In this document: positions 5,106 through 33,545 of the stretch, piece by piece
How positions within the stretch are numbered: position 1 is the stretch's first letter
Layout of the letters: every line of letters starts with the position of its first letter
Position numbers and translations under genes: made by a program
Notes under the pieces: generated by a model
The model's database searches: none
Seen by the model: only the letters and a program-made list of their open reading frames with translations
What the model was told of the DNA's origin: nothing
DNA from: Candidatus Micrarchaeota archaeon
Lineage (GTDB): Archaea; Micrarchaeota; Micrarchaeia; Anstonellales; J096
Assembly: GCA_013153395.1 (NCBI GenBank)
Contig: JAADEL010000028.1
Span: 1-39,526 of the forward strand
Direction: 5' to 3'
DNA length: 39,526 bases

Positions 5106-5127
5106 TGTTTTAATAAGTGATTGTTGG

Positions 5128-5135: not shown

Positions 5136-5157
5136 GATTTGGGGGTAAAGAGAGGGC

Positions 5158-6297: not shown

Positions 6298-6298
6298 G

Positions 6299-6306
6299 TT
6301 TTTAAA
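6299..6306 (+). promoter_or_regulatory. TATA box for the CBS gene
   Basis: TTTTTAAA is centred 25.5 nt upstream of the ATG at 6328. Confidence 0.4.
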
Positions 6307-6327
6307 GTCTTGGATAAGAAGAAAAGC

Positions 6328-17052: not shown

Positions 17053-17054
17053 AT

Positions 17055-18908: not shown

Positions 18909-18909
18909 A

Positions 18910-19944
18910 ATGAAGGTCCTATTTACCACTGACACCTACCATCCCAATGTGGATGGTGTGGTAAAGACCTTGGATTTGCTGGAAAGAGAACTCGAGAAAT
19001 ACGGAATCGAGGTATATATCCTTGCGCCTGAGGGAAGCGAAACAAAGGAAAACGTGCACTTGGCAAAGGCCCTGCCTTTCCTTCCTTACCCTGATTATAA
19101 GATTCCTCTGCCCTTTGAGCTAGAGTTTGAGGTTGATATTGTTCACAACCACGGGATCACAATAACAGCCTGGGAAGGTCTGATTTATGGGAGGAAAAAG
19201 AACATCCCGGTTATCGGAACCTATCATACGGATGTTATAGATGCCACCCACTATGTTAACCTTCCTAAGGAAGTGGCCGCCCGCTATATTCGCACCCTCT
19301 ATAAACGACACGATATAACGTTGGCACCTTCTTACTTCGCCCTCAAGAAGCTTATGAAACGAACCAAGCTCCGCAATGGGTTTGTGTTTCCCAACCCTAT
19401 TGACACCTCCGAGTTCATACAATCCAAGCAAAAATCCCCTTTTCTTCTTCATGTAGGCCGGCTGGTAAAGGAAAAAAGGATTGATTTGATATTTCCCTAT
19501 CTCGAGAAGGTAGGAATGCCCCTTTATGTGGCGGGCAAAGGACCTGCATTGGAGTATTATAAAAAACTGGCTGAAAGCTATAATGCGGAAATCCATTTCT
19601 TGGGATATGTGCCTGATGAGGAGCTCAAGCAGCTCTATGCGAAGGCAACCGCTCTTGTTTTTAACTCAAGCTTTGATACGCAGGGGCTTGTGTGCTTAGA
19701 GGCGTTGGCAAGCGGAACCCCTGTTGTGGCCTATAAAGAAACTGCCTTTGCGGAGATAGCCGAGAAGCTGGGCACCGTATTCTGGGACGAGCTGAGCTTT
19801 ATAAAGGCCGTAAAGCAAGCCACCACCATTCCTCAATCTAAGCTTCTCTCCATTGCCAAGAAGTATGATATTCAGGTGCTGGGAAAGAAGATTGTGAAGC
19901 TATACGAGCTTATGCTCGAGAGAGAGCTTTATAAACTTCTCTGA
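18910..19944 (+). CDS. Glycosyltransferase family 4
   Basis: 344 aa. The fold is GT-B; the C-terminal half has GRLVKEKRIDL and EALASGTPVVA (EX7E region). Confidence 0.8.
   Translation: MKVLFTTDTYHPNVDGVVKTLDLLERELEKYGIEVYILAPEGSETKENVHLAKALPFLPYPDYKIPLPFELEFEVDIVHNHGITITAWEGLIYGRKKNIPVIGTYHTDVIDATHYVNLPKEVAARYIRTLYKRHDITLAPSYFALKKLMKRTKLRNGFVFPNPIDTSEFIQSKQKSPFLLHVGRLVKEKRIDLIFPYLEKVGMPLYVAGKGPALEYYKKLAESYNAEIHFLGYVPDEELKQLYAKATALVFNSSFDTQGLVCLEALASGTPVVAYKETAFAEIAEKLGTVFWDELSFIKAVKQATTIPQSKLLSIAKKYDIQVLGKKIVKLYELMLERELYKLL
19928..19935 (+). promoter_or_regulatory. TATA box for leuS inside the 3' end of the GT4 gene
   Basis: TTTATAAA is centred 25.5 nt upstream of the ATG at 19957. Confidence 0.4.
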
Positions 19945-19956
19945 TAATAAAAAGAC

Positions 19957-22575
19957 ATGGAAGAGGAGAAACTCATCGAACTCTGGGAAAAAGAAGGAAG
20001 ACACCTCTCTGACCCTGACTCCCGCCCTAAATACTTTATCACAGCTGCATTTCCCTATCCTAACAGCCCCCAGCACATAGGACATGCAAGGACATATACT
20101 TTAACCGATATCTATGCTCGCTTTTATAGGCTGTTGGGATATAATGTTTTGTTCCCGATGGGTTTCCATGTAACAGGAACTCCTATTGTTACCATGGCCG
20201 AGCGCATAAAAGAAGGGGACCCTAGCCTAGCCGAGGTTTTTGAGAAGATATATGGCATTCCTAAGGAAGTTTATTCCAAACTCACCGACCCTTTTGATTT
20301 GGTGATGTTCTTCTCTCGAGAGATAGAAGAAGGAATGAAACGAATGGGCTATTCTATCGATTGGAGGAGGAAGTTTTATACCTCTGACCCTCATTTTCAG
20401 AGATTTATTGAATGGCAGTTCCAGAAGCTCTATAAAAAAGGCCTTATTGTAAAGGGAACCCATCCTGTGGCCTTTAGCTTGAAGCTCAATTCCTCAGTAG
20501 GTGCCCATGACACCAAAGGGGATGTGGACCCTGAGATTACCGAATACACAGGTGTGTTGTTTGAGACTCCGCTCGGATATCTGGTCACGGCAACTTTAAG
20601 GCCTGAAACCCTCTATGGGATAACCAACATCTGGATTAGAGAAGACGAGGATTATGTGGTGGTGGAGTATCAAGGAAAAAAACTTATATTCGGAAAGAAG
20701 GCATGGGAGATCCTCCAGCATCAGCTCCCAGGTGCCAAGATAGTGGACGAGATAAAAGGGAAAGAGCTCTTGAAGCTAGAGGCCGAGGTCCCTATCACTG
20801 GGCAAAGGGTTCCTATATGGCACGGAGAGTTTGTAGACCCTGAGGAGGGAACAGGCATCGTGATGAGTGTGCCGGGCCACTCCCTCTGGGACTATTACGA
20901 GTATCGCAAGCACACTGACCAACCCTATCCGGTGATTATAAAGGTAGGAAACAAAGAAAGTAAGGCCGAGGATTACTTTAAATCCCACGGCGGAAAGGAA
21001 GAGGACCTGGAGAAACTAAACGAGGAATTCTACCATTTGGAATTTACCAAAGGCTATCATGAGCCGCTAGGCATGCCTGTAAAGGAGGCCCGAGAGAAGA
21101 CCAAAGAGAAACTAAAGGAAAAGGACGCCATGATAGAGCTTTATAAGATCTCCAACGGGCCTGTATATTCAAGGGCAGGAGACAAGGTAATCGTGAAAGT
21201 GCTTGAAAACCAATGGTTTATTGATTATGGTAATCCAGAGTGGAAGAAGAAGGCAAAGGAGCTGCTTGCCTCCATGAAAATCATCCCTGAGGAGATGAGA
21301 AAGCGTTTTGAGCACACCATAGATTGGCTCAAGAGAAAGGCTGCCACCCGAAGCAGAGGTCTTGGAACAAAATTCCCGTTTGATAAATCCCAGATTATTG
21401 AGTCCTTAAGTGATTCTACGGTGTATATGGCCTTCTATACCTTCGCCCATCATATAAAGGAGTTTAAGCCTGAGGAGCTCACCGAGGAATTCTTTGATTA
21501 CATATTTTATGGCATAGGGGAGCCTGTGAATGAAAAGCACAAGGAACTAAGAAAGATGTTTGATTACTATTATGGCTTGGATGCCAGGCATAGTGGTGTG
21601 GACCTTGTAACCAACCATCTTACCTTCTTTATCTTCAACCACGCCGCCCTTTTCCCTCATAAACCTCCTAAGGCCATAGTGGTAAACGGCTCGGTGTTGA
21701 TGGAAGGAAAGAAGATGAGCAAGTCCATGGGAAACATCATTCCGTTAAAAAAGGCAATAGAGCAGTGGAGCGCTGATGTGCTTAGGCTAACAGTGGCTGC
21801 TTCCACCGAAATTATTATGGATGCTAACTTCTCAGAGAGCACTGCCCGAGGAGTAAAGGAGAGATTGGAGTTTTATAAGAAGACATTTTTGACAGAGGAC
21901 AAAGGCAAAAAGGATGAGTTGGACGAGTGGTTGGAGAAGAAGGTAAAGCACTATGCCACACTGGCTTATGACTATTATCGGGCTTATGAGGTGCGCAAGG
22001 TAACCAATCTTTTGTTCTATGAGCTCTTCAAAGACTTGCAATGGTATATGCAGAGGAAGCCTGAAGGCAAGAGGAATCTCTCCGAGGTTGCTCGCATCTG
22101 GGCCATCTATCTTTCCCCCATAATCCCATTTACCACTGATTACATATTCAGGGAGAGATTCGGAGAGAGTGTGTTTGACCAGACCCTGCCTATGTTCAGA
22201 GAGTGGAAGTTTGTGCATGAAGAGGAGTTTTTCAGAGAGCTCCTTGAGGACATAAGGCATCTGCTCAAGCTAAAGAAAGGAAAGAAGCTCTACATCGGCA
22301 TTGCTAAGGAGTGGAAGTTTGAGGTTTATAAGAGGCTTTCTCGCAAAGATGCCATCAAGGATATTGTTTCACAAGAGCCTAAGGCAAAAGAGCTGTTGGC
22401 AAAGCTCAAGAACAAGGCCTATACCTTAGACTTTCCTTATGAGCGCGAAAGACTGATAGAGTATCTCAACAAAAACAAGGATTATCTGGAGAAGGAGCTA
22501 GGATTAGAGGTGGAGATAGGAGAGGAGAAGCAAAAGTATGCCCTTCCTGATAAGCCTGAGCTGCTGTTAGAATGA
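19957..22575 (+). CDS. leuS: Leucine--tRNA ligase (archaeal type, short)
   Basis: 872 aa. It has FPYPNSPQHIGHARTY (HIGH), the CP1 editing region and KMSKSMGN. The N-terminal block matches archaeal LeuRS. Confidence 0.9.
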   Translation: MEEEKLIELWEKEGRHLSDPDSRPKYFITAAFPYPNSPQHIGHARTYTLTDIYARFYRLLGYNVLFPMGFHVTGTPIVTMAERIKEGDPSLAEVFEKIYGIPKEVYSKLTDPFDLVMFFSREIEEGMKRMGYSIDWRRKFYTSDPHFQRFIEWQFQKLYKKGLIVKGTHPVAFSLKLNSSVGAHDTKGDVDPEITEYTGVLFETPLGYLVTATLRPETLYGITNIWIREDEDYVVVEYQGKKLIFGKKAWEILQHQLPGAKIVDEIKGKELLKLEAEVPITGQRVPIWHGEFVDPEEGTGIVMSVPGHSLWDYYEYRKHTDQPYPVIIKVGNKESKAEDYFKSHGGKEEDLEKLNEEFYHLEFTKGYHEPLGMPVKEAREKTKEKLKEKDAMIELYKISNGPVYSRAGDKVIVKVLENQWFIDYGNPEWKKKAKELLASMKIIPEEMRKRFEHTIDWLKRKAATRSRGLGTKFPFDKSQIIESLSDSTVYMAFYTFAHHIKEFKPEELTEEFFDYIFYGIGEPVNEKHKELRKMFDYYYGLDARHSGVDLVTNHLTFFIFNHAALFPHKPPKAIVVNGSVLMEGKKMSKSMGNIIPLKKAIEQWSADVLRLTVAASTEIIMDANFSESTARGVKERLEFYKKTFLTEDKGKKDELDEWLEKKVKHYATLAYDYYRAYEVRKVTNLLFYELFKDLQWYMQRKPEGKRNLSEVARIWAIYLSPIIPFTTDYIFRERFGESVFDQTLPMFREWKFVHEEEFFRELLEDIRHLLKLKKGKKLYIGIAKEWKFEVYKRLSRKDAIKDIVSQEPKAKELLAKLKNKAYTLDFPYERERLIEYLNKNKDYLEKELGLEVEIGEEKQKYALPDKPELLLE

Positions 22576-23234
22576 TATACTTGGTAGGTTTGGGCCTTTA
22601 TTTCCAGCTTCCCCAATCAGTGATAAAGGAGCTTGAAGGCTTTGATATTGTGGTGATTGACGGATACACCGTTACCTTGCCTCCTTTGGATTTTCCCTAT
22701 CCTGTGGTTGATAGGAAGTTCCTGGAGGAAGACATATGGAAATTGATGGATAAGGATATTGCGATATTGGTGGCAGGGGATCCCCTCTTTGCAACCACCC
22801 ATACCTCTATCTACTTTGAGGCTTTGAAACGAGGGATAGAGGCAAAGGTCTTTCACAATTCCTCTATATTGAACGCTGTTTCACGCACTGGGTTAAGTGC
22901 CTATAAGTTCGGGAGGGTGGTAAGTGTGGTGAAATGGAGCGAGAACTACAAGCCCACCTCCTATCTTGACCACATAAAACAAAACCAATCTTTGGGGCTC
23001 CATACCTTGGTGCTGCCTGATCCCCAGTTTAAGGATTTCAATGAGTTTCTTTTCCAGATGCCCGAGGATATGGAGATGATTACCCTCCATAGAATAGGAT
23101 GGAAAGAAGAAGGGATCTATTTTGATAAAAGGAATGTTAAGCATCCTTTTGCGGTGGTTGTTCCTGGGGAGGTCTCCCATTATGAGAGAGAACATATGGA
23201 TATACTAAGGCAATTATCGCAGCGCTCCCGATAG
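22572..23234 (+). CDS. dph5: Diphthine synthase
   Basis: 220 aa. MIYLVGLGL, VAGDPLFATTH and VVVPGEVSHYE are present (tetrapyrrole-methylase fold). It has an ATGA overlap with leuS. Confidence 0.85.
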   Translation: MIYLVGLGLYFQLPQSVIKELEGFDIVVIDGYTVTLPPLDFPYPVVDRKFLEEDIWKLMDKDIAILVAGDPLFATTHTSIYFEALKRGIEAKVFHNSSILNAVSRTGLSAYKFGRVVSVVKWSENYKPTSYLDHIKQNQSLGLHTLVLPDPQFKDFNEFLFQMPEDMEMITLHRIGWKEEGIYFDKRNVKHPFAVVVPGEVSHYEREHMDILRQLSQRSR

Positions 23235-23583
23235 CCATCTCGAGGAACATCTCCGGCGTCCAATAGCGCTGCCAGGTTGTCCATCCCCAAAGGTGGCCAA
23301 GAGTAAGGCCTAGAGCAATAGGCCACTTTATAGGGCTTTTGGAATAGACCCAGAGCCAGCCCAACGTCCATAAAAAGCTTCCTACAACAAGGCCGCCGTC
23401 ATATGCAAGAAAAGGCCTTACGATGGGATTGCCCTCCATCCAAGGTCGGGTATTGGCCATGTGGTAGGTGATAACAAGGTCTCCTAGCCCAAAGATCATA
23501 AAACCAGCCAGCCATATCCAGCTTTTGTCAGCCCATCTGCGGGCAATATAGACTGCGGCTATAGGTCCGAGAAGCTCAATCAT
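23137..23583 (-). CDS. Small membrane protein (DUF5658-like, EGNP motif)
   Basis: 148 aa with 4 hydrophobic spans and the MEGNPIVRPF motif. Its 3' end overlaps dph5 by 98 nt. Confidence 0.5.
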   Translation of the reverse strand: MIELLGPIAAVYIARRWADKSWIWLAGFMIFGLGDLVITYHMANTRPWMEGNPIVRPFLAYDGGLVVGSFLWTLGWLWVYSKSPIKWPIALGLTLGHLWGWTTWQRYWTPEMFLEMAIGSAAIIALVYPYVLSHNGRPPQEQPPQKDA

Positions 23584-24157
23584 CGAGGGTGTGCTGCTTG
23601 GGAGCCAACAGCTCCTTCAAAGTACTCCACTTCTTCCTAACATAGGGCTCTATCTTCTCAGGATGGTTTTTCACATAGTCGCGGGTTATGGGGTCAGAAG
23701 GATATCCGCTCCCAAAGAAGCCTATCTTATCCGCTATCTTGGCAATCTCTTTGTCTCGTTCTACCTTGGCAGCAATAGAGGCAGCTGCCACTATGGAATA
23801 CTTTTCATCAGCTTTGAACTCTGCTTGCACAGGGATAGGGAGCACGCTCTCAATCTTCTTAGGGTCGGTAAAGGCATCGATAAAGGCTTTTTCTGCTTTA
23901 TAGGTGGAAAGCACCTTTTGGAGGGCTTGGAGCTCTAGCCAGTTGATGTTGTTGGCATCTATCTCGCTAGGGCTAAGCTTGACCAAAACAACTTTGGCAT
24001 GCTGCTTTATCTTTTGGTAGAGTTGCTCGCGTTCTTTAGGAGAAAGTTGTTTGGAATCCTTATCCACAAAATCAAGAGGATGGTCAGAAAAAACAAAAGC
24101 AATAACCAAAGGGCCAACCAACGAGCCCCTGCCTGCCTCGTCTATGCCTACAATCAC
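23576..24157 (-). CDS. rnhB: Ribonuclease HII
   Basis: 193 aa. MIVGIDEAGRGSLVGPLV, DSKQLSP and ASIAAKV are present. Confidence 0.9.
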   Translation of the reverse strand: MIVGIDEAGRGSLVGPLVIAFVFSDHPLDFVDKDSKQLSPKEREQLYQKIKQHAKVVLVKLSPSEIDANNINWLELQALQKVLSTYKAEKAFIDAFTDPKKIESVLPIPVQAEFKADEKYSIVAAASIAAKVERDKEIAKIADKIGFFGSGYPSDPITRDYVKNHPEKIEPYVRKKWSTLKELLAPKQHTLDD

Positions 24158-24417
24158 TTGGTCAACAGCATGCGCTTATCCACGATGATATAGTCGCTTA
24201 CTGCCAACACGCTGTCAAAAGGCACGTAGGCATAGCCTTCTTCATTTATGTTCAAGCGGTCCTTAAAATCCAGGCTCTCATTAGGCTCTACTATCAAGAA
24301 CTCTAGCTTGCCGGTTTGCTCATTAATAGTAACATCTACAAGACGGCCTAAATCATCCCCGTCGGTAGTGACTATCTTTTTACCAGGGAGTTGTCGAGCG
24401 ATAACTATCCTTGCCAT
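24154..24417 (-). CDS. PRC-barrel domain protein
   Basis: 87 aa. GKKIVTTDGDDLGRLVDVTINEQTGKLEFLIVEP is a typical PRC barrel. Confidence 0.7.
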   Translation of the reverse strand: MARIVIARQLPGKKIVTTDGDDLGRLVDVTINEQTGKLEFLIVEPNESLDFKDRLNINEEGYAYVPFDSVLAVSDYIIVDKRMLLTK

Positions 24418-24478
24418 ATTTTCTTCACCTAATTCTAAATTATGGTGTTGTTTTTTTAAACCTATCCTAACCCCTTAC

Positions 24479-24486
24479 ATATAAAA
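24479..24486 (+). promoter_or_regulatory. TATA box for PCNA
   Basis: ATATAAAA is centred 26.5 nt upstream of the ATG at 24509. Confidence 0.4.
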
Positions 24487-24508
24487 ACCCTACGGGGGAG
24501 ATTAAAGC

Positions 24509-25231
24509 ATGAAAATCACCTTCTCCAGCGCAAAGGAATTTTCCAAATACATAGAGCTCTGCAGCAAGCTATCCACCGATGCTCTGTTTAAGCTTACACC
24601 CGATGGCCTTATCATAAAGGCCTTAGACCAAGGAAACATCTCCCTACTCAAGCTCACCATACCCACCCATGCATATGAAGCAGATACTGAGGAGCTCCAA
24701 ATCGGCTTGGATGTTGCAGAGCTCAAAAAGCTTATCGGTAAAGCAAAGGATGACCAAACCCTCACATTAGAATTCCAAGAAACCCAAATCATTATCACAA
24801 TAACCAAGGAAGGAATTACCAAGAAATACTATTCAAGAGCAGTAGATATGACAGGCAAGGATATCGAGCCCAAGACCCAATATGAGAACTATGCAATCAT
24901 AGACCCCGAGACCTTCAAAGAGATAATAGATGATGCAAAGAAGGTCTCCACCCATATCAAGTTCTATCTCACACCAGACCATCTTGAAGCAGAGGCCAAG
25001 GACATGGGCAATGTAAAATACCAAATAAGGCTGGAAAAGACTGCTTTGATAGACCTGGTGTGCAAGGATCCCCAAGCCGCCATGTTCCCTGTGCTCCACC
25101 TCTCCTACATAGCTCCTGGCCTAAAGGAAAGCGATGTCAAGCTTTACTTAGCCACCGCCAAGCCTCTTAAGCTGGGGTTCAGAGTGGGCTCTGCTGATGC
25201 TCAGTACTGGGTGGCTCCTGCGGAAGAATAA
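24509..25231 (+). CDS. pcn: DNA polymerase sliding clamp (PCNA)
   Basis: 240 aa. The N terminus FSSAKEFSKYIELCSKLSTDALFKLTPDGLIIKALDQGNISLLKLTIP and the two-domain clamp pattern support the call. Confidence 0.9.
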   Translation: MKITFSSAKEFSKYIELCSKLSTDALFKLTPDGLIIKALDQGNISLLKLTIPTHAYEADTEELQIGLDVAELKKLIGKAKDDQTLTLEFQETQIIITITKEGITKKYYSRAVDMTGKDIEPKTQYENYAIIDPETFKEIIDDAKKVSTHIKFYLTPDHLEAEAKDMGNVKYQIRLEKTALIDLVCKDPQAAMFPVLHLSYIAPGLKESDVKLYLATAKPLKLGFRVGSADAQYWVAPAEE

Positions 25232-25259
25232 CTTTTTGTCGAACTTCTTTCTTTTTATC

Positions 25260-25267
25260 TTTATAAA
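25260..25267 (+). promoter_or_regulatory. TATA box for the OFOR operon
   Basis: TTTATAAA is centred 25.5 nt upstream of the ATG at 25289. Confidence 0.45.
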
Positions 25268-25288
25268 TGTATGTTCTCCTAATTAGGC

Positions 25289-27046
25289 ATGGATTTTACT
25301 ATAAAGGTAGGAGCGGCCGCTGGTGAAGGGGCCTTTGTAACCGGTAAGGTGCTGGGAAAGCTCTTTGCCCGCGGCGGATATCATGTGTTTGGATATCCTG
25401 AGTATCCTTCTTTGATTAGAGGCGGACACAACAGCTACCAAGTGAGAATCTCTGATGGAACAATAGAGAGCCCAAGAAGAGAAAACAACATCATCCTGGT
25501 CCTAAACCCTGATGCCTATGCCTTCCATATCGAAACATTGGCCAAGGATGGTGTGATTATCGTGGACAAGAGCTTTGCTCCAGGCAAGGACGAGAGAGAG
25601 CTTGCCCTGCCTATTGCGGATTTGATAAAAGAGGCAGGCGGAGATATGAGGATGAAGAATACCTTGCTGGTGGGCGTAACGCTAGGATTGGTAGGATATC
25701 CGTTGGAGATGTTGGAACAATTGTTGGAGGAGATCTTTGGCTCTAAGGGAGAGGAAGTAGTGAATGCCAATAAGAGAGTGGCAAGAGCAGGATATGAGAT
25801 AGGCAAGGACCACAAGAAATGGGAGATTGTTCCAAAGGGCGAGCCCAAGTATTATATTGCAGGAAATGAGGCCGCTGGGCTTGGTGCCTTGTCGGCTGGA
25901 TTGAGGTTTTATTCAGGATATCCTATGACACCTGCCTCCTCTCTGCTCCATTTCTTGATAAGCAAGAGGGGCAAGCTACCTTTGGCTGTGGTCCAATCTG
26001 AGGATGAGATTGCCGCCATAAATCAGGCAATAGGTGCTGCCTATGCGGGTGTAAGGGCGATGACAGGTTCTTCAGGAGGAGGATTTGCCCTGATGACAGA
26101 GGCAGTGGGATTGGCCGCTTTGGCAGAGATCCCGCTGGTTGTATACTTGGCTCAGAGAACAGGTCCTTCCACAGGTATGCCTACTTGGACTGAGCAAGCC
26201 GACCTTTTCCAGGTGCTTGGGGCAAGCCAAGGAGAGTTTTTGAGGATTGTGCTGGCACCTACCTCCATACCTGAAAACTATAGACTGACAGGAGAGGCTC
26301 TTAATCTTGCTGAAAAGTATCAGGTGCCTGTGTTTGTGCTTGTGGATAAGTTCCTTGCCGAGTCCAATGCCACCTTAGATAGCTTGCCACCCATCCCTAT
26401 AGAGCGAGGTCCTATTATATTGGAGGATATGGAGGAGCTTCCTTTAATGAAACGATATCCCCGCTATAAGGATACTGAGACGGGAGTTTCGCCTAGGCCA
26501 GTGCCGGGCGTAAGAGGAGGTTATCATATAGGGACCTCTTATGAGCACAGGGAAGATTCCTTCACTACGGAGGATTTTGATGAGAGGAAGAAACAGGTGG
26601 ATAAGAGGATGCGCAAGCTTGCCCATATCTTGAACGAGAGCTATCCACCTATTGTCGAAGGAAATGGAAGGGTAGCGGTGGTTGCATGGGGAAGTCAAAA
26701 GGGCCCTGTGTTTGAGGGTGCCAAGAAATACAAACGCATTGCTTTCAACTGGGTGTATCCGCTGGACAAAGAGAAGGTGAAGAAGGCCTTCGAGGGTGTG
26801 GAGAGAATAGTGGTGTTTGAGAACAATGCCACAGGATTGTTTTCCAAGCTTCTTTACATGGAGACAGGGATAAAACCTGATGCCCTTGTGCTCAAATACA
26901 CAGGAAGGCAGTTCTTCCCTGAGCAGGTAGAGCATGCTTTGGAGATGCTGGAAGAGAAGGATTTCCAATCCCCTGATCCTATCAGGTATGAGGAGGACTT
27001 TGAGAAGTATGAGTTTTATGCTCCTTGGAGATATAAGGTGAAATAA
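25289..27046 (+). CDS. 2-oxoacid:ferredoxin oxidoreductase, fused gamma-alpha subunit
   Basis: 585 aa. An N-terminal gamma-like domain (VGAAAGEG) is fused to an alpha domain (GYPMTPAS, EDEIAA). The two-subunit architecture resembles crenarchaeal-type OFOR. Confidence 0.85.
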   Translation: MDFTIKVGAAAGEGAFVTGKVLGKLFARGGYHVFGYPEYPSLIRGGHNSYQVRISDGTIESPRRENNIILVLNPDAYAFHIETLAKDGVIIVDKSFAPGKDERELALPIADLIKEAGGDMRMKNTLLVGVTLGLVGYPLEMLEQLLEEIFGSKGEEVVNANKRVARAGYEIGKDHKKWEIVPKGEPKYYIAGNEAAGLGALSAGLRFYSGYPMTPASSLLHFLISKRGKLPLAVVQSEDEIAAINQAIGAAYAGVRAMTGSSGGGFALMTEAVGLAALAEIPLVVYLAQRTGPSTGMPTWTEQADLFQVLGASQGEFLRIVLAPTSIPENYRLTGEALNLAEKYQVPVFVLVDKFLAESNATLDSLPPIPIERGPIILEDMEELPLMKRYPRYKDTETGVSPRPVPGVRGGYHIGTSYEHREDSFTTEDFDERKKQVDKRMRKLAHILNESYPPIVEGNGRVAVVAWGSQKGPVFEGAKKYKRIAFNWVYPLDKEKVKKAFEGVERIVVFENNATGLFSKLLYMETGIKPDALVLKYTGRQFFPEQVEHALEMLEEKDFQSPDPIRYEEDFEKYEFYAPWRYKVK

Positions 27047-27047
27047 A

Positions 27048-27902
27048 ATGATGGAGTTTAACACACCTGAAAAGCCGCAGTGGTGTCCTGGCTGTGGTGA
27101 TTACGGAATACACACTGCATTAAAGCAGGCATTGCATGAAGTAGGTGCCCATCCTAAGGATACAGTGATAGTAAGCGGTATTGGCTGTGGTAGCAAGATC
27201 CCCAACTATGTGAGAAGCTATGGACTAGAGGGATTGCACGGCAGGGTGATCCCAACAAGCGTGGGCATAAAGATTGCCAATCCTGAGCTCACCGTTATCG
27301 GCATAGGAGGAGACGGAGATGGATTTAGTGAGGGAGGAAACCATTTCATCCATGGCGCAAGAGAGAACTTTGATATTGTGTATATTGTCCAAGACAACCA
27401 CATCTATGGATTAACTACTGGACAAGCTTCTCCCACTACTCCTAAGGGAATGAAAACCAAGACCACACCAGACGGAAACATGATTAATGAGTTTAGGCCA
27501 GTGCCTATGGCCTTAGTGGCAGGGGCAACCTTTGTAGCAACTGCCTTTGCCGGAGATATCATGCACTTGAAGGAGGTGATAAAGGAGGCAATTGCCCACA
27601 AGGGATTTGCCTTTATAGATGTCTATCAGCCTTGTGTGACATGGAACAAGCTTAACACCTACGACTGGTATCGTGAGAGAGTGTATAAAACAACTCATGA
27701 CCCTAGCGACTGGAACCAAGCATGGGAGAAGGCTTGGGAACCTTATGTCACCGACTTTGAGAAGATCCCTCTTGGAGTGATCTACAAGAAGGAAAGAGAG
27801 ATTGCCGACGATTTCTTCTCTCCTGGCCGAAAGAACCTAGTGAAGGAGCCTCTGGATCCCAACGGCATTGACGTCTCCTTCCTAGCGAAAGAGTTCCTAT
27901 AA
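27048..27902 (+). CDS. 2-oxoacid:ferredoxin oxidoreductase beta subunit (TPP-binding)
   Basis: 284 aa. WCPGCGD, SGIGCGS, GGDGDG and DNHIYGLTTGQ are present. Confidence 0.9.
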   Translation: MMEFNTPEKPQWCPGCGDYGIHTALKQALHEVGAHPKDTVIVSGIGCGSKIPNYVRSYGLEGLHGRVIPTSVGIKIANPELTVIGIGGDGDGFSEGGNHFIHGARENFDIVYIVQDNHIYGLTTGQASPTTPKGMKTKTTPDGNMINEFRPVPMALVAGATFVATAFAGDIMHLKEVIKEAIAHKGFAFIDVYQPCVTWNKLNTYDWYRERVYKTTHDPSDWNQAWEKAWEPYVTDFEKIPLGVIYKKEREIADDFFSPGRKNLVKEPLDPNGIDVSFLAKEFL

Positions 27903-27935
27903 AGGGGCAAGGCGCCTATTAGTTCCGCCCCTTTA
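27900..27935. repeat. Hairpin L1 of the AAAGGGGC/GCCCCTTT family (possible terminator of the OFOR beta gene)
   Basis: TAAAGGGGC - 18-nt loop - GCCCCTTTA forms a perfect 9-bp stem. The stop codon TAA of 27048..27902 lies in the 5' arm. Confidence 0.7.
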
Positions 27936-27960
27936 AGGTGCCTAACAGGGTCCGGGGTTT
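27936..27960. repeat. Left arm of the 25-bp imperfect inverted repeat flanking the ATPase gene
   Basis: The sequence is AGGTGCCTAACAGGGTCCGGGGTTT. The reverse complement of 29372-29396 is AGGTGCCTAACAGGATTCGGGGTTT, identical at 23 of 25 positions. Weaker similarity extends to about 27927-27971. Confidence 0.8.
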
Positions 27961-27961
27961 G

Positions 27962-27998
27962 ATAAAGGGGCGGTTCAAAAGGTGTCTTGCCCCTTTAT
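27962..27998. repeat. Hairpin L2 of the same family (possible terminator of the ATPase gene)
   Basis: ATAAAGGGGC - 17-nt loop - GCCCCTTTAT forms a perfect 10-bp stem. The ATPase stop codon (27995-27997) lies in the 3' arm. Confidence 0.7.
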
Positions 27999-29185
27999 TG
28001 TTGGGATAATTTCCAAAAGGGAATTGCTTCAATCTCTCCGAAAGATTGCTCTTGGTTATAGGTAATAATAATGCCTTTTTTATCTGGGTTGAGATCTAAA
28101 TAATGGCGAAGGGATTTTAGCTCTCTTTCTAGATTGTCGCCTAAATTGTAGCTAACCTGGATAGCATGAGAGGGTGTTATAAAATCTACCTCGGCATTTT
28201 CCGCTCTCCAATAATGAAGCCTCTTATATTTTCGGAATAGTTCCACCGCCACTGCATTTTCTAACAACTTGCCCCATCCATCTTGAAAAAGTGATAGGTA
28301 ACCGTTGTCTATGAAATAGCTTTTTCTATACATCTCTTTTTTCAAGAAGGACTGCTTTTCTCTGTAAGACGTTAAAAATAACCACGCATTCTCTAAATAT
28401 TTGTAATAATTAATCAAGGATTTTGGTGAAATAGATATATTCAAGCTTTTCAATTTTTTGCTTATGGAGAGAAAAGAGTATTCTTTTCCTATGTTTTCCG
28501 CGAGTTTTTTGATTAAAAGCTCTAAAAGCGCTTCTTCTCTTATGTCATATCTTTTGACTACATCTTGGAGTATGGTAGATTGGAAATAAAGTCTAAGCAG
28601 CTCCTCTTTCCGATTACTGTTAACCACGCCGGGGAAACCGCCATAATATAGGTAATCATCAACCAAATGATATTTTTCTGGAACATAAGGGAAGTTGGTC
28701 ACTCCTTTAAATCGTAAATACTCGCGGAATGAAAGAGGGAGAATGGTTATTTCCCAATATCTGCCTGCTAACACAGTTGAGAACTCACCGCTTAATAGAT
28801 TAGAATTAGAACCTGTGATATATACTTCATACCCGTCGTTTAACAATCTCCGTATGAACCGCTCCCAATTAGGAGCGTTCTGAATCTCATCAAAGAAAAA
28901 GATGGGCTCTTGATCCGGATATAAGGAGTAGTAGGCACTCACAATCTCCTCTAGATTTCTTAGGTCCATCAGCCTATAATCCTCAAAGTCCAAATATACA
29001 TACCTTGTAATAGGCTCCTTTAAGCTATCCATAATCTGATATAAAAAATAGGTCTTTCCTGCACGCCTAGGCCCTGTAATCACTTTCACCAATCCCTTTT
29101 CGTCAGGAATCTCTATTTCCCTTGGGATATATTCAGGTATGCCTTTTTTATGGAAGTTTATTATCAACTCCTTTATTACCTCCAC
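27995..29185 (-). CDS. COG1373-type AAA+ ATPase (AAA_14) with C-terminal DUF4143 (PD-(D/E)xK-like) domain
   Basis: 396 aa with a GTG start. Walker A is GPRRAGKTY and Walker B is IFFFDEIQ. The C terminus ENAVAVELFR...YWRAENAEVDFI...IQVSY fits the nuclease-like DUF4143 pattern. Confidence 0.8.
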   Translation of the reverse strand: MEVIKELIINFHKKGIPEYIPREIEIPDEKGLVKVITGPRRAGKTYFLYQIMDSLKEPITRYVYLDFEDYRLMDLRNLEEIVSAYYSLYPDQEPIFFFDEIQNAPNWERFIRRLLNDGYEVYITGSNSNLLSGEFSTVLAGRYWEITILPLSFREYLRFKGVTNFPYVPEKYHLVDDYLYYGGFPGVVNSNRKEELLRLYFQSTILQDVVKRYDIREEALLELLIKKLAENIGKEYSFLSISKKLKSLNISISPKSLINYYKYLENAWLFLTSYREKQSFLKKEMYRKSYFIDNGYLSLFQDGWGKLLENAVAVELFRKYKRLHYWRAENAEVDFITPSHAIQVSYNLGDNLERELKSLRHYLDLNPDKKGIIITYNQEQSFGEIEAIPFWKLSQQ

Positions 29186-29205
29186 ATTTATTAACGAAGG
29201 AAAGT

Positions 29206-29213
29206 TTATTTAA
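29206..29213 (-). promoter_or_regulatory. TATA box for the ATPase gene
   Basis: The minus-strand sequence TTAAATAA is centred 24.5 nt upstream of the GTG at 29185. Confidence 0.4.
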
Positions 29214-29214
29214 G

Positions 29215-29231
29215 TTTTCCCCAAAGGAAAA
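29215..29231. promoter_or_regulatory. Palindromic operator-like site 1 (TTTTCC-N5-GGAAAA) abutting the ATPase TATA box
   Basis: The sequence TTTTCCCCAAAGGAAAA lies immediately upstream (in the gene sense) of the TTAAATAA box at 29206-29213. Confidence 0.4.
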
Positions 29232-29246
29232 ATATTTCAAGAAAAA

Positions 29247-29264
29247 TTTTCCCCACAAGGAAAA
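29247..29264. promoter_or_regulatory. Palindromic operator-like site 2 (TTTTCC-N6-GGAAAA)
   Basis: The sequence TTTTCCCCACAAGGAAAA lies 32 bp from site 1. The 14-mer AATTTTCCCCACAA recurs at 32796-32809. Confidence 0.4.
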
Positions 29265-29288
29265 TCTTTTTTACAACGTCTTTTTCAA

Positions 29289-29296
29289 CTATAAAG
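29289..29296 (+). promoter_or_regulatory. Orphan TATA-like element at the edge of the structured non-coding region
   Basis: CTATAAAG has no ORF start 25 nt downstream. It would place a transcription start near 29318-29320, inside the hairpin-rich region. Confidence 0.2.
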
Positions 29297-29329
29297 GAGG
29301 CCGGCTAAGAGGGTTCATGCCCCCTTTAT
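29291..29329. repeat. Hairpin R1 of the same family
   Basis: ATAAAGGAGGC - 17-nt loop - GCCCCCTTTAT pairs at 10 of 11 positions. Confidence 0.6.
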
Positions 29330-29333
29330 CAAA

Positions 29334-29370
29334 TAAAAGGGCTAGGCGCTCTTACTCCCCTGCCCTTTTA
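29334..29370. repeat. Hairpin R2 of the same family
   Basis: TAAAAGGGC - 19-nt loop - GCCCTTTTA forms a perfect 9-bp stem. Its loop TAGGCGCTCTTACTCCCCT resembles the L1 loop AAGGCGCCTATTAGTTCC in the same orientation. Confidence 0.65.
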
Positions 29371-29371
29371 A

Positions 29372-29396
29372 AAACCCCGAATCCTGTTAGGCACCT
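29372..29396. repeat. Right arm of the 25-bp imperfect inverted repeat flanking the ATPase gene
   Basis: The sequence is AAACCCCGAATCCTGTTAGGCACCT, which pairs with 27936-27960. Weaker similarity extends to about 29361-29405. Confidence 0.8.
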
Positions 29397-29415
29397 AATG
29401 GGGTTCAGGGTTGTT

Positions 29416-29451
29416 GAAAGGGTGGCCACCTATCTGGGTTCACACCCTTTC
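29416..29451. repeat. Hairpin R3, related architecture
   Basis: GAAAGGGTG - 18-nt loop - CACCCTTTC forms a perfect 9-bp stem. Confidence 0.6.
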
Positions 29452-29544
29452 ACAGGGTTGTCGGAAGGGGCATGTTATTAGGGTCCGTGTCCCTTGCGCG
29501 GGGTTCTTGAAAGAACCGGCGCATTCTCCAGCAGAAAAGATAGG

Positions 29545-29552
29545 TTTATAAA
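29545..29552 (+). promoter_or_regulatory. Palindromic TATA box for the RDD gene
   Basis: TTTATAAA is centred 25.5 nt upstream of the ATG at 29574. Being palindromic, it could also fire leftwards into the structured region, with a start near 29522. Confidence 0.45.
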
Positions 29553-29573
29553 GTGTTTGGGAGGGTGTGTATT

Positions 29574-29930
29574 ATGAACACAAAATTGAAAAGGATAGCA
29601 GCCTATGTGATAGATTTGATAGCCTTGGGTTTTATTAACGGCATAGTGATGTCTTACCTGGGTTTTTTGGGAGTAATAGGGTTTATCTTGACAAAGTTTC
29701 TGTATGACCCATTGTTTCACCTTATAGGCTGGAAAGGACAGAGTTTAGGAAAGAAGTTGCTAGGATTGCGGGTGGTAAAAAGCACTGGCCAGCTCACGTT
29801 GGCGGATCTAGCTGTCCGAAGCTTCCTAAGGTTCTGTATGCTTACCGCATTAATTTCCTTTATACTCTGGCTGGTAGAAAAGGAGACCTTGCATGACAAG
29901 ATTGTGAAAACTAGAGTAGTGGAAGAATAA
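29574..29930 (+). CDS. RDD family membrane protein
   Basis: The track ORF starts at 29553. The ATG at 29574 (MNTKLKRIAAYVIDLIALGF...) lies 25.5 nt from the TTTATAAA box. LGKKLLGLRVV is typical of RDD proteins, and there are three TM spans. Confidence 0.7.
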   Translation: MNTKLKRIAAYVIDLIALGFINGIVMSYLGFLGVIGFILTKFLYDPLFHLIGWKGQSLGKKLLGLRVVKSTGQLTLADLAVRSFLRFCMLTALISFILWLVEKETLHDKIVKTRVVEE

Positions 29931-31107
29931 GCTTCTCGTATTTTTCTTTTATTTCTTTTAGGAGCTGGGGTGTGCTTGCCTCTATTGTTAGTCTTATGAG
30001 ATCCTCAGTTCCGCTTGGCCTTATAAGGACCTTATAATCTTCTTTCTCTATCAAGATGCCATCAATATCGGAGAAATCCTCTTGAATAAGGGATTTGAGC
30101 TTCTCCATTACTTGATGTTTTTGGGTAGTGGGATAGTTGGAACGTTCCACAGGATAGGGTTTTATATGGGGAAGTTCAAGCATGCCCTGGGACTCCATCT
30201 CGGTTAAGAGGGCGGTAGAGGCAATTCCATCGGGCACATAGGAGATCTCAGGAAAGATATATTCTCCGTTAGGCTCGCCCCCAAAGCTATCCTTGTATTT
30301 CATGAGCTCGTATCCTACAAAGGTAGAGCCCACCGGCACAATCCTTATATGAGGATAAAATTGTTTAAGGTAGTTAAGAAGGTATTTGGGGAGCTCAACA
30401 GTTGCTACCAAGGTCTTTTTGCCCTTTTGCTCGGCCATATAGCGGGCCACCATCGCAAACAATAGATCCCCTGATATGGGCTTACCGTCTTTGAAAAGAA
30501 CTACTCGGTCTCCGTCAGCATCATAGGCAAAGCCCTCTTCAAGGGAAAGTTTGCTAGGCTCGCTCTCCCTCACCATCTTAGGCACGTTGTTTATAAGGGA
30601 AAAGCGCTCGGTGCTCTCTTTAGCATACCAGGTGAAAAAGGTCTGAACAGCTGAATTAACCTCAAACACACGACCTTCGAAGGAGAACTCAAATACCTCT
30701 AAGGCATCCAGATAATCGCTGAAAATCTCCTCTTGATAATAATGGCCAGCTCCTGCCTCATACAGGGGCTCAGTAAGAAAGCCCGCCTCGGTTTTCATGA
30801 GCTCCCTCTTTTCTTTGATAAACTTAACGCCGTTGTGATTTAAGGGGTTGTGAGAGGCCGTTATCATGATTCCCACTCCTGCAAAGCCCATTATGCCGGT
30901 GCTCACTATGCCAAGGTCATAGACATCTACCCCTGCACTTAAGGCTCCTGCCGAAGCTGCCTTAGCCAATGGTAAAGAGCTCTCTCTTAGATCCCTTCCT
31001 ATATAAATATAATCAAACTCTTGGGCAAACTTGTTTACCCATTCATATACAGAGCTCCCTTTTATCTTTTCACCATAAACGCCTCTTATACCAGAAGTGC
31101 CTAGCAT
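29911..31107 (-). CDS. Phosphoglucomutase/phosphomannomutase-family enzyme (GlmM-like, short)
   Basis: 398 aa. GTSGIRG, TASHNPLNHNGVKF (active-site Ser), DADGDR and RPSGTE are present. Confidence 0.85.
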   Translation of the reverse strand: MLGTSGIRGVYGEKIKGSSVYEWVNKFAQEFDYIYIGRDLRESSLPLAKAASAGALSAGVDVYDLGIVSTGIMGFAGVGIMITASHNPLNHNGVKFIKEKRELMKTEAGFLTEPLYEAGAGHYYQEEIFSDYLDALEVFEFSFEGRVFEVNSAVQTFFTWYAKESTERFSLINNVPKMVRESEPSKLSLEEGFAYDADGDRVVLFKDGKPISGDLLFAMVARYMAEQKGKKTLVATVELPKYLLNYLKQFYPHIRIVPVGSTFVGYELMKYKDSFGGEPNGEYIFPEISYVPDGIASTALLTEMESQGMLELPHIKPYPVERSNYPTTQKHQVMEKLKSLIQEDFSDIDGILIEKEDYKVLIRPSGTEDLIRLTIEASTPQLLKEIKEKYEKLILPLL

Positions 31108-31324: not shown

Positions 31325-32005
31325 ATGTTTAGGGAAAAACCCCAAAGATCCTCTAAGAAAAGAGGTCCGTTAGATTGGATGTTTCCTGATAAAGAAAAGG
31401 TTTTCCGCAATCTAGAAGAACATTATGAACGCTCTTTATGGAAAGCAGCCAATGAAAGGCGGAGCAAACAAGGAAAGCCTCTTTTAAGAAGAACTGATTT
31501 AGGCTATTATCTGGACTTGGAAAAATCTCCTCCTGTAGTGGTAACCTTTGAAGGAGTGGTTAGGAACTTGGTAACAACTGAAGGAGCTTTGGAGAAGGCA
31601 TCGCAAGGATTTGCTCGTTTGTTTCCTGCCGGACTAGAAAAACTCATGCTTTCTCATTTTAGCCCTTACTTTGCAACTCATATCAAGAGAGGAGAAACCA
31701 ATTATATAGGTGTGATTGGTGCCATGGGCAATTTCTTGCTTTATGAAATAAAAGATGGAGGATTGGCAGCGGCCTATGAATGGAATTATATGCTGGATGA
31801 GGTGCCTTTTCTCACATTGTCTGGCAAGCTTAGCAACACACTTACTTTCTCTTTAGAAGCTTTGAGATTGGTAAAAATACAGTATAAGGATTTTGAAGTA
31901 ATCTTTGAGCGCCTTAAAGATAACATATCTTTTAGAATAACTACCTCCCGAGGACAGAGGGAAACCAAAGGTCCTGTGCTGTTGTTTCCACCCACTACCC
32001 AATAA
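31325..32005 (+). CDS. Hypothetical soluble protein (gene A of an uncharacterised cluster)
   Basis: 226 aa with a basic N terminus (REKPQRSSKKRGP) and no TM span. No family was recognised. It has its own TATA box 27.5 nt upstream. Confidence 0.5.
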   Translation: MFREKPQRSSKKRGPLDWMFPDKEKVFRNLEEHYERSLWKAANERRSKQGKPLLRRTDLGYYLDLEKSPPVVVTFEGVVRNLVTTEGALEKASQGFARLFPAGLEKLMLSHFSPYFATHIKRGETNYIGVIGAMGNFLLYEIKDGGLAAAYEWNYMLDEVPFLTLSGKLSNTLTFSLEALRLVKIQYKDFEVIFERLKDNISFRITTSRGQRETKGPVLLFPPTTQ

Positions 32006-32008
32006 CTC

Positions 32009-32016
32009 TTTTATAT
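32009..32016 (+). promoter_or_regulatory. TATA box for gene B
   Basis: TTTTATAT is centred 24.5 nt upstream of the ATG at 32037. Confidence 0.4.
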
Positions 32017-32036
32017 TGTTTTTTACTATATAAACT

Positions 32037-32786
32037 ATGGTAGGCCAAAAACAGGAATTTCCTATGCCAAGAGAAAAAGAAAGACCTGGTTCTCGGATTT
32101 TCAGGAAAATAGAGGAATGGGGAAAGAAAGTAACGCCTTTTCTTGTGGCCGCTAATTTTATGCTGGGTTTTCCTGTTGTCCCTAAGGTAGCAAATAGTCC
32201 ACCAATAAACGCCGCCTATGCTCAATACGACCCACATGTCACTTATATGTTCGATTACCGAGTAAAAATATACACCTTTGATGTAGGGAAGATGGGATAT
32301 GAGTATAAGACCTTTTTGGAAGTACTGGCCGATAAAGCACAAATGGAGGTGCCACTGAATAGGTTTGTGAAAATAGAGGATCCAAAACTCCCTGATGGCT
32401 ATTACATCAGAACTCCTCAAAACCTCCATGCTATAATATATAAGCAGGGCATTATCTTCTATAACACCACTGATAAAGGAGTACTTAAAGGAATGATATG
32501 GTTTATAATGCCTTCCTCCCTCCTACATTACCAATTTAAAGAAGTGGAATGTAAGGAGAAGATGTGCATCGTATATGTAACTGAGCCCACTGAGAAAGAG
32601 CCTGGCAAGCTACTGGCAGTTAAATTAGCTAAAAACACCCTTTCTGAGTTTCCTTATAGGTTTGTAATATATAAAGGAGAATACACAGACAAAAACCACA
32701 TTCGTTTTACCGGCAAGGACATCTATCATAAGATAATTGCTAGTGGCCCTCCGAGTTACCCTAGCATTGCCGAAGTAGTACCTTAG
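32037..32786 (+). CDS. Hypothetical N-terminally anchored membrane protein (gene B)
   Basis: 249 aa. The EKERPGSRIFRKIEEWGK motif is followed by one TM span and then a domain with FKEVECKEKMCIVYV. It is a paralogue of gene C. Confidence 0.55.
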   Translation: MVGQKQEFPMPREKERPGSRIFRKIEEWGKKVTPFLVAANFMLGFPVVPKVANSPPINAAYAQYDPHVTYMFDYRVKIYTFDVGKMGYEYKTFLEVLADKAQMEVPLNRFVKIEDPKLPDGYYIRTPQNLHAIIYKQGIIFYNTTDKGVLKGMIWFIMPSSLLHYQFKEVECKEKMCIVYVTEPTEKEPGKLLAVKLAKNTLSEFPYRFVIYKGEYTDKNHIRFTGKDIYHKIIASGPPSYPSIAEVVP

Positions 32787-32787
32787 A

Positions 32788-32795
32788 TTTATATA
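32788..32795 (+). promoter_or_regulatory. TATA box for gene C
   Basis: TTTATATA is centred 25.5 nt upstream of the ATG at 32817. Confidence 0.45.
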
Positions 32796-32816
32796 ATTTT
32801 CCCCACAATAACATTC

Positions 32817-33545
32817 ATGGTATATAAACAAACCGGAAAGGAGCCTCTGAAGCAGCAACCAGAGGTTGAGAAAGAGAGACCAGGATCCCAATTTTTCCGA
32901 GCAGTTAGAGAGAGAGGAAAGAGCTTATTGAGAGTGGGAGTAGTAACCATGGCTTTTACATTGTTGGGACTCCCTCTAGTGAAAAAGGCCGATCCAGTGA
33001 AGCAGTTTACAGGACAAAAGATAGAAGTAGTGAGCACCAACCACGCCCTGGCAAATCCTTCTGAAAAGATAAAACTAAGCGAGAAGAACCTGCTTATCTT
33101 TGTGCTCACACACGACGAATTCAAGCAGATAGATAAGGATTTCTATGATCTCTTACAGAAGTTGGCTAAAGAAGACTTTCCTGCAGGAGTAATGGCCGAT
33201 TTAATGATCTTTTATTACATGAGAACATCTGACAATCACCATATGGTGGCCAATAAAGAAGGAATGCTATTGTATAGTACGGAAGGAGGATATATATGGT
33301 TCTTTGCACCGCTAAAAGGCGATACATTCCAAGACTTTAAGTGTAAGGAGGAGCAAAAGGCATGTGTGGCTAAGCTAACTTATCCAGAGGATGGCAAGCC
33401 AGGTCATATTCTTGCAGTATTTTATAGCGATAGCGCCGGTGAGCTTGTAGTAGGACTAGGCGAATACGGCGAAGATGGTAAGTTAATAGAAGGAACTACC
33501 CAGATTGAGGTTTATGATCCTTACAAGATTCCAAAATTTAGATAA
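32817..33545 (+). CDS. Hypothetical N-terminally anchored membrane protein (gene C, paralogue of B)
   Basis: 242 aa. The EKERPGSQFFRAVRERGK motif is followed by one TM span and then a domain with FQDFKCKEEQKACVAKL...GHILAV. It is collinear with gene B. Confidence 0.55.
   Translation: MVYKQTGKEPLKQQPEVEKERPGSQFFRAVRERGKSLLRVGVVTMAFTLLGLPLVKKADPVKQFTGQKIEVVSTNHALANPSEKIKLSEKNLLIFVLTHDEFKQIDKDFYDLLQKLAKEDFPAGVMADLMIFYYMRTSDNHHMVANKEGMLLYSTEGGYIWFFAPLKGDTFQDFKCKEEQKACVAKLTYPEDGKPGHILAVFYSDSAGELVVGLGEYGEDGKLIEGTTQIEVYDPYKIPKFR

Follow-up and report, generated by a model that had tools for sequence, protein, structure and literature searches.

The window analysed here is a stretch of 39,526 nucleotides from a Candidatus Micrarchaeota archaeon (contig JAADEL010000028.1, positions 1 to 39,526), and the subject is a single gene at 27995-29185 on its minus strand, which encodes an AAA+ ATPase with a nuclease-like C-terminal region. 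In JGI metagenome 3300005095 the window forms positions 1-39526 of a longer contig of 61.8 kb (Ga0072504_118808). The gene is bracketed by a 25-bp inverted repeat, in which an earlier note, made from the sequence alone, had seen a sign of a possible mobile or defence cassette. The repeat is real. Its arms, however, are internal linkers of ~100-nt palindromic doublets, and a third doublet lies on the same contig without an ATPase gene. We put at roughly 60% the probability that the locus represents a solitary acquired gene of the PDC-S01 family, situated at a synteny breakpoint and flanked by lineage-specific palindromic repeats that occupy the gaps of a compact genome.

Palindromic doublets around the ATPase gene

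The left arm of the inverted repeat, AGGTGCCTAACAGGGTCCGGGGTTT, occupies 27936-27960 on the plus strand, and the reverse complement of 29372-29396 is identical to it at 23 of 25 positions. When up to 3 mismatches are allowed, the window has a single other match to the 25-mer, namely this right arm on the opposite strand, with 2 mismatches; dinucleotide-preserving shuffles gave no match (0/100). Both arms were located by pattern matching, the left one also by alignment, and they enclose the one ATPase gene. The weaker similarity that had been noticed out to ~45 nt is borne out: the inverted repeat spans 41 nt at 80% identity without gaps (27929-27969 and 29363-29403) and ~72 nt with gaps (27928-27999 against 29403-29332, score 50, where the shuffle maximum of 25 for gapped alignment scores was measured on the pair of sites T and R described below). 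The arm motif is also present in direct orientation at 29392-29412.

The arms sit within bigger palindromic elements, which the earlier note had overlooked together with the third copy of the motif outside the window. Similarity continues outward from the arms into palindromic units on both sides, unlike the ends of a transposon bounded by terminal inverted repeats (TIRs). Each doublet consists of two inverted ~37-nt units (AAAGGGG...CCCCTTT) around a conserved linker and has a total length of ~100-120 nt. This common anatomy is supported by a three-way alignment of the copies, which are called L, R and T. The 25-bp inverted repeat is found because the linkers of doublets L and R are in opposite orientation.

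Copy L (27899-27998, plus strand) was delineated by its fold, its nested inverted repeats and its alignment to copy T. It begins with a ~37-nt unit at 27899-27936, ATAAAGGGGCAAGGCGCCTATTAGTTCCGCCCCTTTAA, continues with the 25-mer linker, and closes with an inverted unit at 27962-27998 that ends in ...GCCCCTTTAT. The doublet exactly fills the gap from the stop codon of OFOR-beta to that of the ATPase gene, with both TAA stops inside it. It folds into one long hairpin of -58.8 kcal/mol (z -6.5), which was equalled by 0/200 shuffles.

Copy R (29334-29453, minus strand) is a doublet in the opposite orientation, recognised by its alignment to copy L (the score of 50 given above), the three-way alignment, its fold and a profile hidden Markov model (HMM) of the units. 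Two units, at 29334-29370 and 29414-29453, surround a linker at 29371-29413, where a local inverted duplication of the motif gives a 12-bp hairpin. Copy R belongs to a right flank that contains five or six AAAGGG...CCCTTT hairpins, and the fold of this region has a z of -4.0 against shuffles. An extra solo palindromic unit, ATAAAGGAGGCC...GCCCCCTTTAT, precedes copy R at 29291-29330 (plus strand; unit HMM E 3e-5), and it aligns to 27962-27998 with a score of 27. Two further degenerate hairpin units follow at 29455-29526 (plus strand), where they were recognised by their fold, an HMM match at 29461-29498 and a direct-repeat family, D1, with members at 29406, 29453 and 29499. Together with 29406-29452 they make up a series with a period of 46-47 nt. 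Tandem Repeats Finder detects nothing in these periodic units, which are too diverged. A degenerate CRISPR array with such a period was considered and rejected, as the would-be spacers are related to each other.

The third cluster, copy T, is located at contig positions 47697-47921 (locus L082, 1388-1612, reverse strand) between the divergent genes for PolD-DP2 and CDC48, 18 kb from the ATPase locus and with no ATPase gene near. It comprises a doublet, a second degenerate copy of the linker and a decayed unit, and lies just upstream of the CDC48 promoter TTTATAAA. Over 34 nt, the first unit of copy T shares 94% identity with 27901-27934, and linker-like cores are present. Copies L and T align in both orientations with scores of 61 and 55, to be read against the shuffle maximum of 25 from the T-versus-R pair, which itself scores 42 and 28.

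Changes in the stems between units are two-sided and keep the pairing, as in AAAGGGGC/GCCCCTTT versus AAAGGGTG/CACCCTTT, where the distal stem pairs differ as GC/GC and TG/CA. These paired changes indicate that the hairpin itself is maintained or generated. The loops of the units have a conserved motif, CCTAWYWGGGTYC, in common. The GC content of the repeats is 0.51, as against 0.37 in the ATPase gene.

An HMM built from seven units finds only the three sites L, R and T in the contig region examined, positions 1-49308, which amounts to 49.3 kb of one genome. The same model has no match in 176 other loci (2.15 Mb in total), some of them from other Micrarchaeota, and no repeats are seen in the orthologous intergenic regions of the nearest relative described below. 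The exact pattern GGTGCCTAACAGGNNNCGGGGTT has 0 matches in metagenome and genome contig collections; for the metagenome collection this is weak evidence, as it lacks even the source contig. A slightly shorter pattern, GGTGCCTAACAGGNNNCGGGG, and the unit loop, GCCTATTAGTTCCGCCCC, each have 0 matches in viral contigs. As far as these comparisons reach, the repeat family is lineage-specific.

The proposal that the 25-bp repeat marks the ends of a cassette is undercut by this anatomy and by several further observations. The doublet between PolD-DP2 and CDC48 occupies an unrelated intergenic site, which in spirit is the kind of distribution that the earlier note had named as speaking against its own proposal. 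Next to the arms, whether taken as 25 nt or as 41 nt, there is no direct repeat that could be a target-site duplication. Domains of a transposase, integrase or recombinase are absent from every gene of contig 1-49308, so that the lack of a transposase or integrase in the window, which had been pointed out before, extends to the larger region. Exact-pattern scans of genome, metagenome and viral collections gave no second copy of the motif or of the cassette. Finally, the closest homologues of the ATPase gene are without flanking inverted repeats at the 7 loci inspected.

The ATPase and its gene

The enclosed gene encodes a protein of 396 residues, characterised through its translation, Pfam and PADLOC profiles, AlphaFold2 modelling, Foldseek searches and base composition. 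Its Walker A (GPRRAGKTY) and Walker B (FFFDEIQ) motifs and the C-terminal EVDFI...IQVSY had already suggested a COG1373-type ATPase. This identity is now firm: Pfam AAA_14 (PF13173) matches residues 33-157 at 3.6e-37, DUF4143 (PF13635) matches at 4.9e-12 (46.3 bits, with a gathering score of 28.1), and the PADLOC profile for PDC-S01 (PDLC04787) covers residues 20-393 at 8.9e-99. Residues G38, K44, D99 and E100 are the same in all 61 homologues compared. A search of PDB sequences with the protein gave P-loop noise only.

The full-length AlphaFold2 model, built on the 61 homologues, has a confidence (pLDDT) of 93.5. The predicted layout consists of an N-terminal helix, an AAA+ core, a lid, a winged helix and a C-terminal nuclease-like domain of alpha-beta-beta-beta-alpha-beta topology. 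Complexes of Orc1/Cdc6 with DNA are the best matches to the full model in the PDB (Foldseek E 1e-6), followed by subunits of RFC and by Avs4, and these matches point to the assignment of the AAA+ core, the lid and the winged helix. A separate model of the C-terminal 132 residues reaches a pLDDT of 87. The predicted secondary structure elements of this part are H304-320, E323-328, E331-333, E340-344, H349-365 and E370-375.

The suggestion that the DUF4143 region has a PD-(D/E)xK fold is in agreement with a census of this superfamily, which lists DUF4143/COG1373 (PMC3424549), and the modelled topology fits. The best PDB matches of the C-terminal domain are McrC (E 0.016, probability 0.98), BstYI, DdmD and AgeI, none of them at E <= 0.001. 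The model thus gives some support to a restriction-endonuclease-like fold, with matches that are right in kind but statistically weak. Residues E309 and D334 are invariant, and the position of the canonical (D/E)xK motif is taken by Q343-V344-S345 throughout the subfamily. The invariant K288, R354 and E355 could stand in for the missing residues.

PDC-S01, an ATPase fused to a PD-(D/E)xK domain, was described in a 2026 survey as the fourth most common defence candidate of prokaryotes, enriched in Archaea and repeatedly transferred between domains (PMC12988326). It is a 'guilt-by-embedding' candidate whose experimental validation is pending (PMC12988326). The earlier idea of a possible defence gene therefore holds at the level of the family, with candidate status, and the window's gene is a new, divergent member of this known and common candidate-defence family. 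The family is rare among phages, with 19 of 50,697 records in the phage collection, mostly metagenomic fragments. The closest homologues are usually paired, in tandem or convergently, with another AAA_14/DUF4143 gene or an ATPase_2 (PF01637) gene, as at L083 1532-4257, L170 3891-6182, L171 1047-3713, L167 1998-4413 and L168 2291-4717, and the window's gene stands alone. HicA and ParE toxins, AbiEii and paralogous AAA_14 or ATPase_2 genes are found nearby at the homologue loci.

The composition and the relatives of the gene agree with the proposal that it is a later insertion. With a GC content of 0.371 it ranks last among 41 genes (mean 0.448; z -3.1), and at third codon positions (GC3) the value is 0.398 (z -2.1). 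Among 5.8 billion proteins the nearest homologue is ~52-54% identical, in contrast to its neighbours, which have orthologues of 50-83% identity in the nearest relative. The genes around it on the contig are archaeal housekeeping genes, among them those for PCNA, FEN1, RNase HII, TBP, TFE, LeuRS, HisRS and PolD.

The unusual spacing that had been noted at this locus is confirmed. The six other convergent junctions of the window overlap by 92, 4, 12, 98, 20 and 10 nt in open reading frame (ORF) coordinates. The OFOR-beta/ATPase junction instead has a spacer of 92 nt (27903-27994). On its other flank the gene has 367-388 nt of non-coding DNA, the length varying with the start chosen for the RDD gene (GTG 29553, GTG 29565, which is the JGI call, or ATG 29574).

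The nearest relative is the Candidatus Micrarchaeota metagenome-assembled genome (MAG) WAPD01, in which OFOR-beta is 82% and PGM 70% identical. As the closest OFOR-beta and PGM are found there, the host of the window is taken to be a DPANN archaeon with a compact genome. A 31.6-kb contig of the relative, found via PGM, has the order DUF655, HTH, FEN1, GT4, inverted PCNA, RDD and PGM, with PCNA directly between GT4 and RDD; the spacer between RDD and PCNA is 68 nt of plain promoter DNA. In the corresponding part of the window (16756-31107), a block with LeuRS, TP-methylase, a 148-residue protein, RNase HII and PRC, and a block with OFOR-alpha, OFOR-beta and the ATPase gene are interposed. In the relative, OFOR-alpha and OFOR-beta are on another contig and are followed by a pilin-like ORF (class-III signal, MKGQVSLETLL...); the OFOR-beta contig ends 88 nt past the gene.

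The difference in gene order between the window and the relative places the ATPase gene at a synteny breakpoint. The gene is found at neither the OFOR-beta nor the RDD junction of the relative. In the collections searched, this relative, with 70-83% protein identity, is the sole close one, and its rearranged order offers no clean empty site. The best OFOR-beta match in the metagenome collection is 54% identical, and more distant Micrarchaeota have unrelated neighbourhoods. The low GC content, the lack of close homologues and the absence from the junctions of the relative suggest that the ATPase gene was probably acquired horizontally, and we infer that the direction of acquisition was into the Micrarchaeota genome.

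Between the gene and the repeats on its right side lies an AT-rich upstream region (29186-29290, minus strand), recognised by its sequence, its low GC content and a direct-repeat family, D2. It contains a TATA-like box, TTAAATA, and beside it two near-identical dyads, TTTTCC-N5/6-GGAAAA, at 29215-29231 and 29247-29264, which are 32 nt apart. The box and the dyads are presumed to be the promoter and operators of the ATPase gene, which may be autoregulated through its own winged helix. The dyads superficially recall mini-ORB (origin recognition box) dyads. A replication origin of the ORB type beside an Orc1-like ATPase was considered and discarded: the protein does not belong to an initiator family, and the inverted repeat spans a gene, not an unwinding element.

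Origin of the arrangement

By combining these observations, it is possible to outline how the locus might have arisen. A single PDC-S01 gene, with the order AAA_14, winged helix and DUF4143, would have been acquired horizontally together with its own AT-rich promoter by a compact Micrarchaeota genome. Its landing point would coincide with a change in gene order as compared with the nearest relative. In a genome whose genes mostly abut or overlap, the acquired gene with its promoter would create a rare spacer, in which repeats might settle harmlessly and come to occupy the non-coding DNA on both sides of the gene. Alternatively, the gene may have landed in a repeat-rich rearrangement hotspot, and the repeats may themselves promote rearrangement or insertion. 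They are probably non-autonomous selfish or structural elements, which would persist where spacer DNA is tolerated. We take the link between the gene and the repeats to be indirect. It is likely that the protein works as an AAA+ switch of the Orc1/Cdc6-RFC structural type, which binds DNA, is driven by ATP and is joined to an effector with a restriction-endonuclease fold, and it would be a candidate for an antiviral function or one directed against mobile elements.

Several points weigh against this description. The amino-acid composition of the family could account for part of the low GC content of the ATPase gene. Three sites in 49.3 kb of one genome are the basis from which a genome-wide repeat family is extrapolated. 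The units are without consistent tags, unlike bacterial repetitive extragenic palindromic (REP) sequences with their typical GTAG/CGTC tags, and no gene for a REP-associated tyrosine transposase (RAYT), no IS200-type (Y1_Tnp) gene and no other plausible mobiliser is present in the 49 kb. The replacement of (D/E)xK by Q343-V-S345 in the whole subfamily makes the putative nuclease activity of the effector uncertain. Of the three known repeat copies, two are found at the sides of the one gene that looks most foreign. The probability of this at random is estimated as ~0.003, for 3 copies and ~45 junctions, so that some causal link between gene and repeats is likely, and co-mobilisation is possible.

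It is unlikely, although some weight should be given to it, that the hairpin clusters are host elements, such as 3'-untranslated regions, terminators, mRNA stabilisers, insulators or small structured RNAs, with the adjacency to the ATPase gene being incidental; a structural-RNA or regulatory role could, though, go together with another of the readings. The strong folds of copy L and of the R region, the stem changes that preserve pairing, the shared loop motif and the position of copy L precisely between two stop codons would all be explained in this way. Clusters R and T, however, are upstream of promoters in divergent intergenic regions and not within obvious transcripts, and copy T has a degenerate linker hairpin. 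In the relative, the orthologous intergenic regions are free of the elements. In the window only tRNA-Gly reaches the gathering score of an Rfam family, and sub-threshold matches in the repeat region are at chance level. A scan for bacterial promoters and terminators detected no terminator-like sites, a result that is uninformative for an archaeon.

A non-autonomous mobile cassette is quite improbable. The ATPase gene and its promoter would here be carried between two inverted miniature elements, a pair of miniature inverted-repeat transposable elements (MITEs), and mobilised in trans. Such a cassette would be in line with the real, non-random inverted repeat, with inverted doublets that flank exactly the low-GC gene, with its absence from the relative and with the horizontal mobility of the PDC-S01 family (PMC12988326); the estimate given above for two of three copies at the ATPase gene also favours it. 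It is opposed by the lack of a target-site duplication and of mobility enzymes, by the solo copy at an unrelated site, by the closest homologues, which are without such ends, and by the failure to find a second cassette anywhere. Furthermore, a GC content of 0.51 in the repeats and 0.37 in the gene is unlike that of one imported block.

It would be a far more surprising outcome, and a very improbable one, if the ATPase-nuclease and the doublets were parts of one selfish system. The winged-helix and PD-(D/E)xK modules would then recognise and cut the hairpin doublets, and the cutting would set in motion either the doublets, in the way that RAYTs mobilise REPINs (inverted REP doublets), or the bracketed gene; the PolD/CDC48 copy would be a solo derivative. 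If this were true, a REPIN-like system in Archaea would be run by an enzyme of the AAA+/restriction-fold type and not by an HUH transposase, and the abundance and frequent transfer of PDC-S01 would have an explanation other than defence.

Integrons have been reported in Archaea, and their attC sites have the consensus RYYYAAC for the inverse core and GTTRRRY for the core. An integron-type gene cassette is largely refuted: GCCTAAC at 27940-27946 and GTTAGGC at 29386-29392 do fit the consensus and a hairpin element does directly follow the ORF, but the boxes lie on either side of the ORF, at a distance of 1.4 kb, and do not bound a single attC of 57-141 nt, a complementary RYYYAAC/GTTRRRY pair is lacking at the ends of both hairpin elements, and the 49 kb contain no integron integrase or other tyrosine recombinase and no cassette array.

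If the locus is indeed a solitary acquired gene flanked by repeats of the host lineage, the gene itself adds little, as PDC-S01 is already catalogued among the commonest candidate defence genes, especially in Archaea. It would nevertheless be a clear case of a PDC-S01 gene that stands alone at a synteny breakpoint, with the housekeeping genes of a reduced DPANN genome around it. The change from ExK to Q-V-S in the whole subfamily is relevant to the design of tests of PDC-S01. Repeats of the kind seen here are poorly documented in Archaea, and would deserve a description of their own if they prove to be genome-wide. Such a family could matter for assembly breaks in MAGs and for rearrangements in Micrarchaeota.

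Neighbouring features and known systems

The repeat cluster on the right side of the ATPase gene ends at a putative promoter of the RDD gene, GATAGGTTTATAAAGT (29539-29562, plus strand), which resembles a BRE/TATA (transcription factor B recognition element and TATA box) arrangement. Motifs of this type form a direct-repeat family, D3, upstream of genes at 6293-6316, 29539-29562 and 38346-38369, and are probably the BRE/TATA promoter consensus of the lineage. Site T has a similar sequence, AAAGGTTTATAAAGG, upstream of the CDC48 gene. There is also a likeness between the TATA-proximal half of the motif and the 5' ends of the palindromic units (ATAAAGGGG).

Two of the convergent pairs mentioned above, at 3509-5270 and 22572-23583, have unusually long opposite-strand overlaps of 92 and 98 nt, which may reflect miscalled ends or starts and not true overlap. 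The sole RNA gene detected in the window, tRNA-Gly(CCC) at 3410-3480, is not adjacent to the ATPase gene and so gives no signal of tRNA-linked integration. Starting 200 nt past PGM, three consecutive hypothetical genes (226, 249 and 242 residues; 31325-33545) have a GC3 of 0.35-0.41. Two of the three proteins have an N-terminal EKERPGS-FFR motif in common, and the 249-residue protein has no homologue among 5.8 billion proteins. This region may be a second lineage-specific or acquired block.

Among known systems, the ATPase is most readily compared with PDC-S01 itself, with which it shares the full-length profile match, the order of domains, the Walker A and B motifs and the restriction-endonuclease-like C-terminal domain. 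It is likewise an accessory gene that makes up a 'system' by itself, with homologues among toxin-antitoxin and Abi genes. In contrast to typical members, it is divergent, with at most ~54% identity to anything known, it is solitary among housekeeping genes and not part of a defence island, and its subfamily has Q-V-S in place of the canonical ExK. AAA+ proteins of the Orc1/Cdc6 and RFC type, the best matches to the whole model, have the same AAA+ core, lid and winged-helix DNA-binding module, but the TM-scores are ~0.3 and the sequence identity is 12-15%. The Orc1/Cdc6 initiators are without the extra C-terminal nuclease-like domain, and there is no sign of a replication role for the ATPase.

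The arrangement as a whole is like a composite formed by a MITE pair in that a small element, present in two inverted copies, encloses one passenger gene. It differs in that no target-site duplication, cognate transposase, sign of movement or second copy accompanies it, and in that MITEs are simple TIR-bounded elements, whereas the elements in the window are palindromic doublets.

The repeats themselves recall REPs, bacterial interspersed mosaic elements (BIMEs) and REPINs. Bacterial REPs are mobilised by RAYTs and the REPs and REPINs have a high copy number, whereas the repeats described here occur in an archaeon, with no RAYT gene in 49 kb and with three sites known. In one survey, the TnpA classes associated with REPs were not seen in Archaea, where only the IS200-type subclass 1.1 was found (PMC6006769). 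The likeness lies in the anatomy: imperfect palindromes of ~37 nt, which are only extragenic, are clustered, alternate in orientation and have conserved linkers. As in REPINs and BIMEs, the inverted doublets fold into a hairpin of ~100 nt, and one of them is placed between convergent genes. Judged by this anatomy, the repeats around the ATPase gene come closest to the REP/BIME clusters and REPIN doublets of bacteria.

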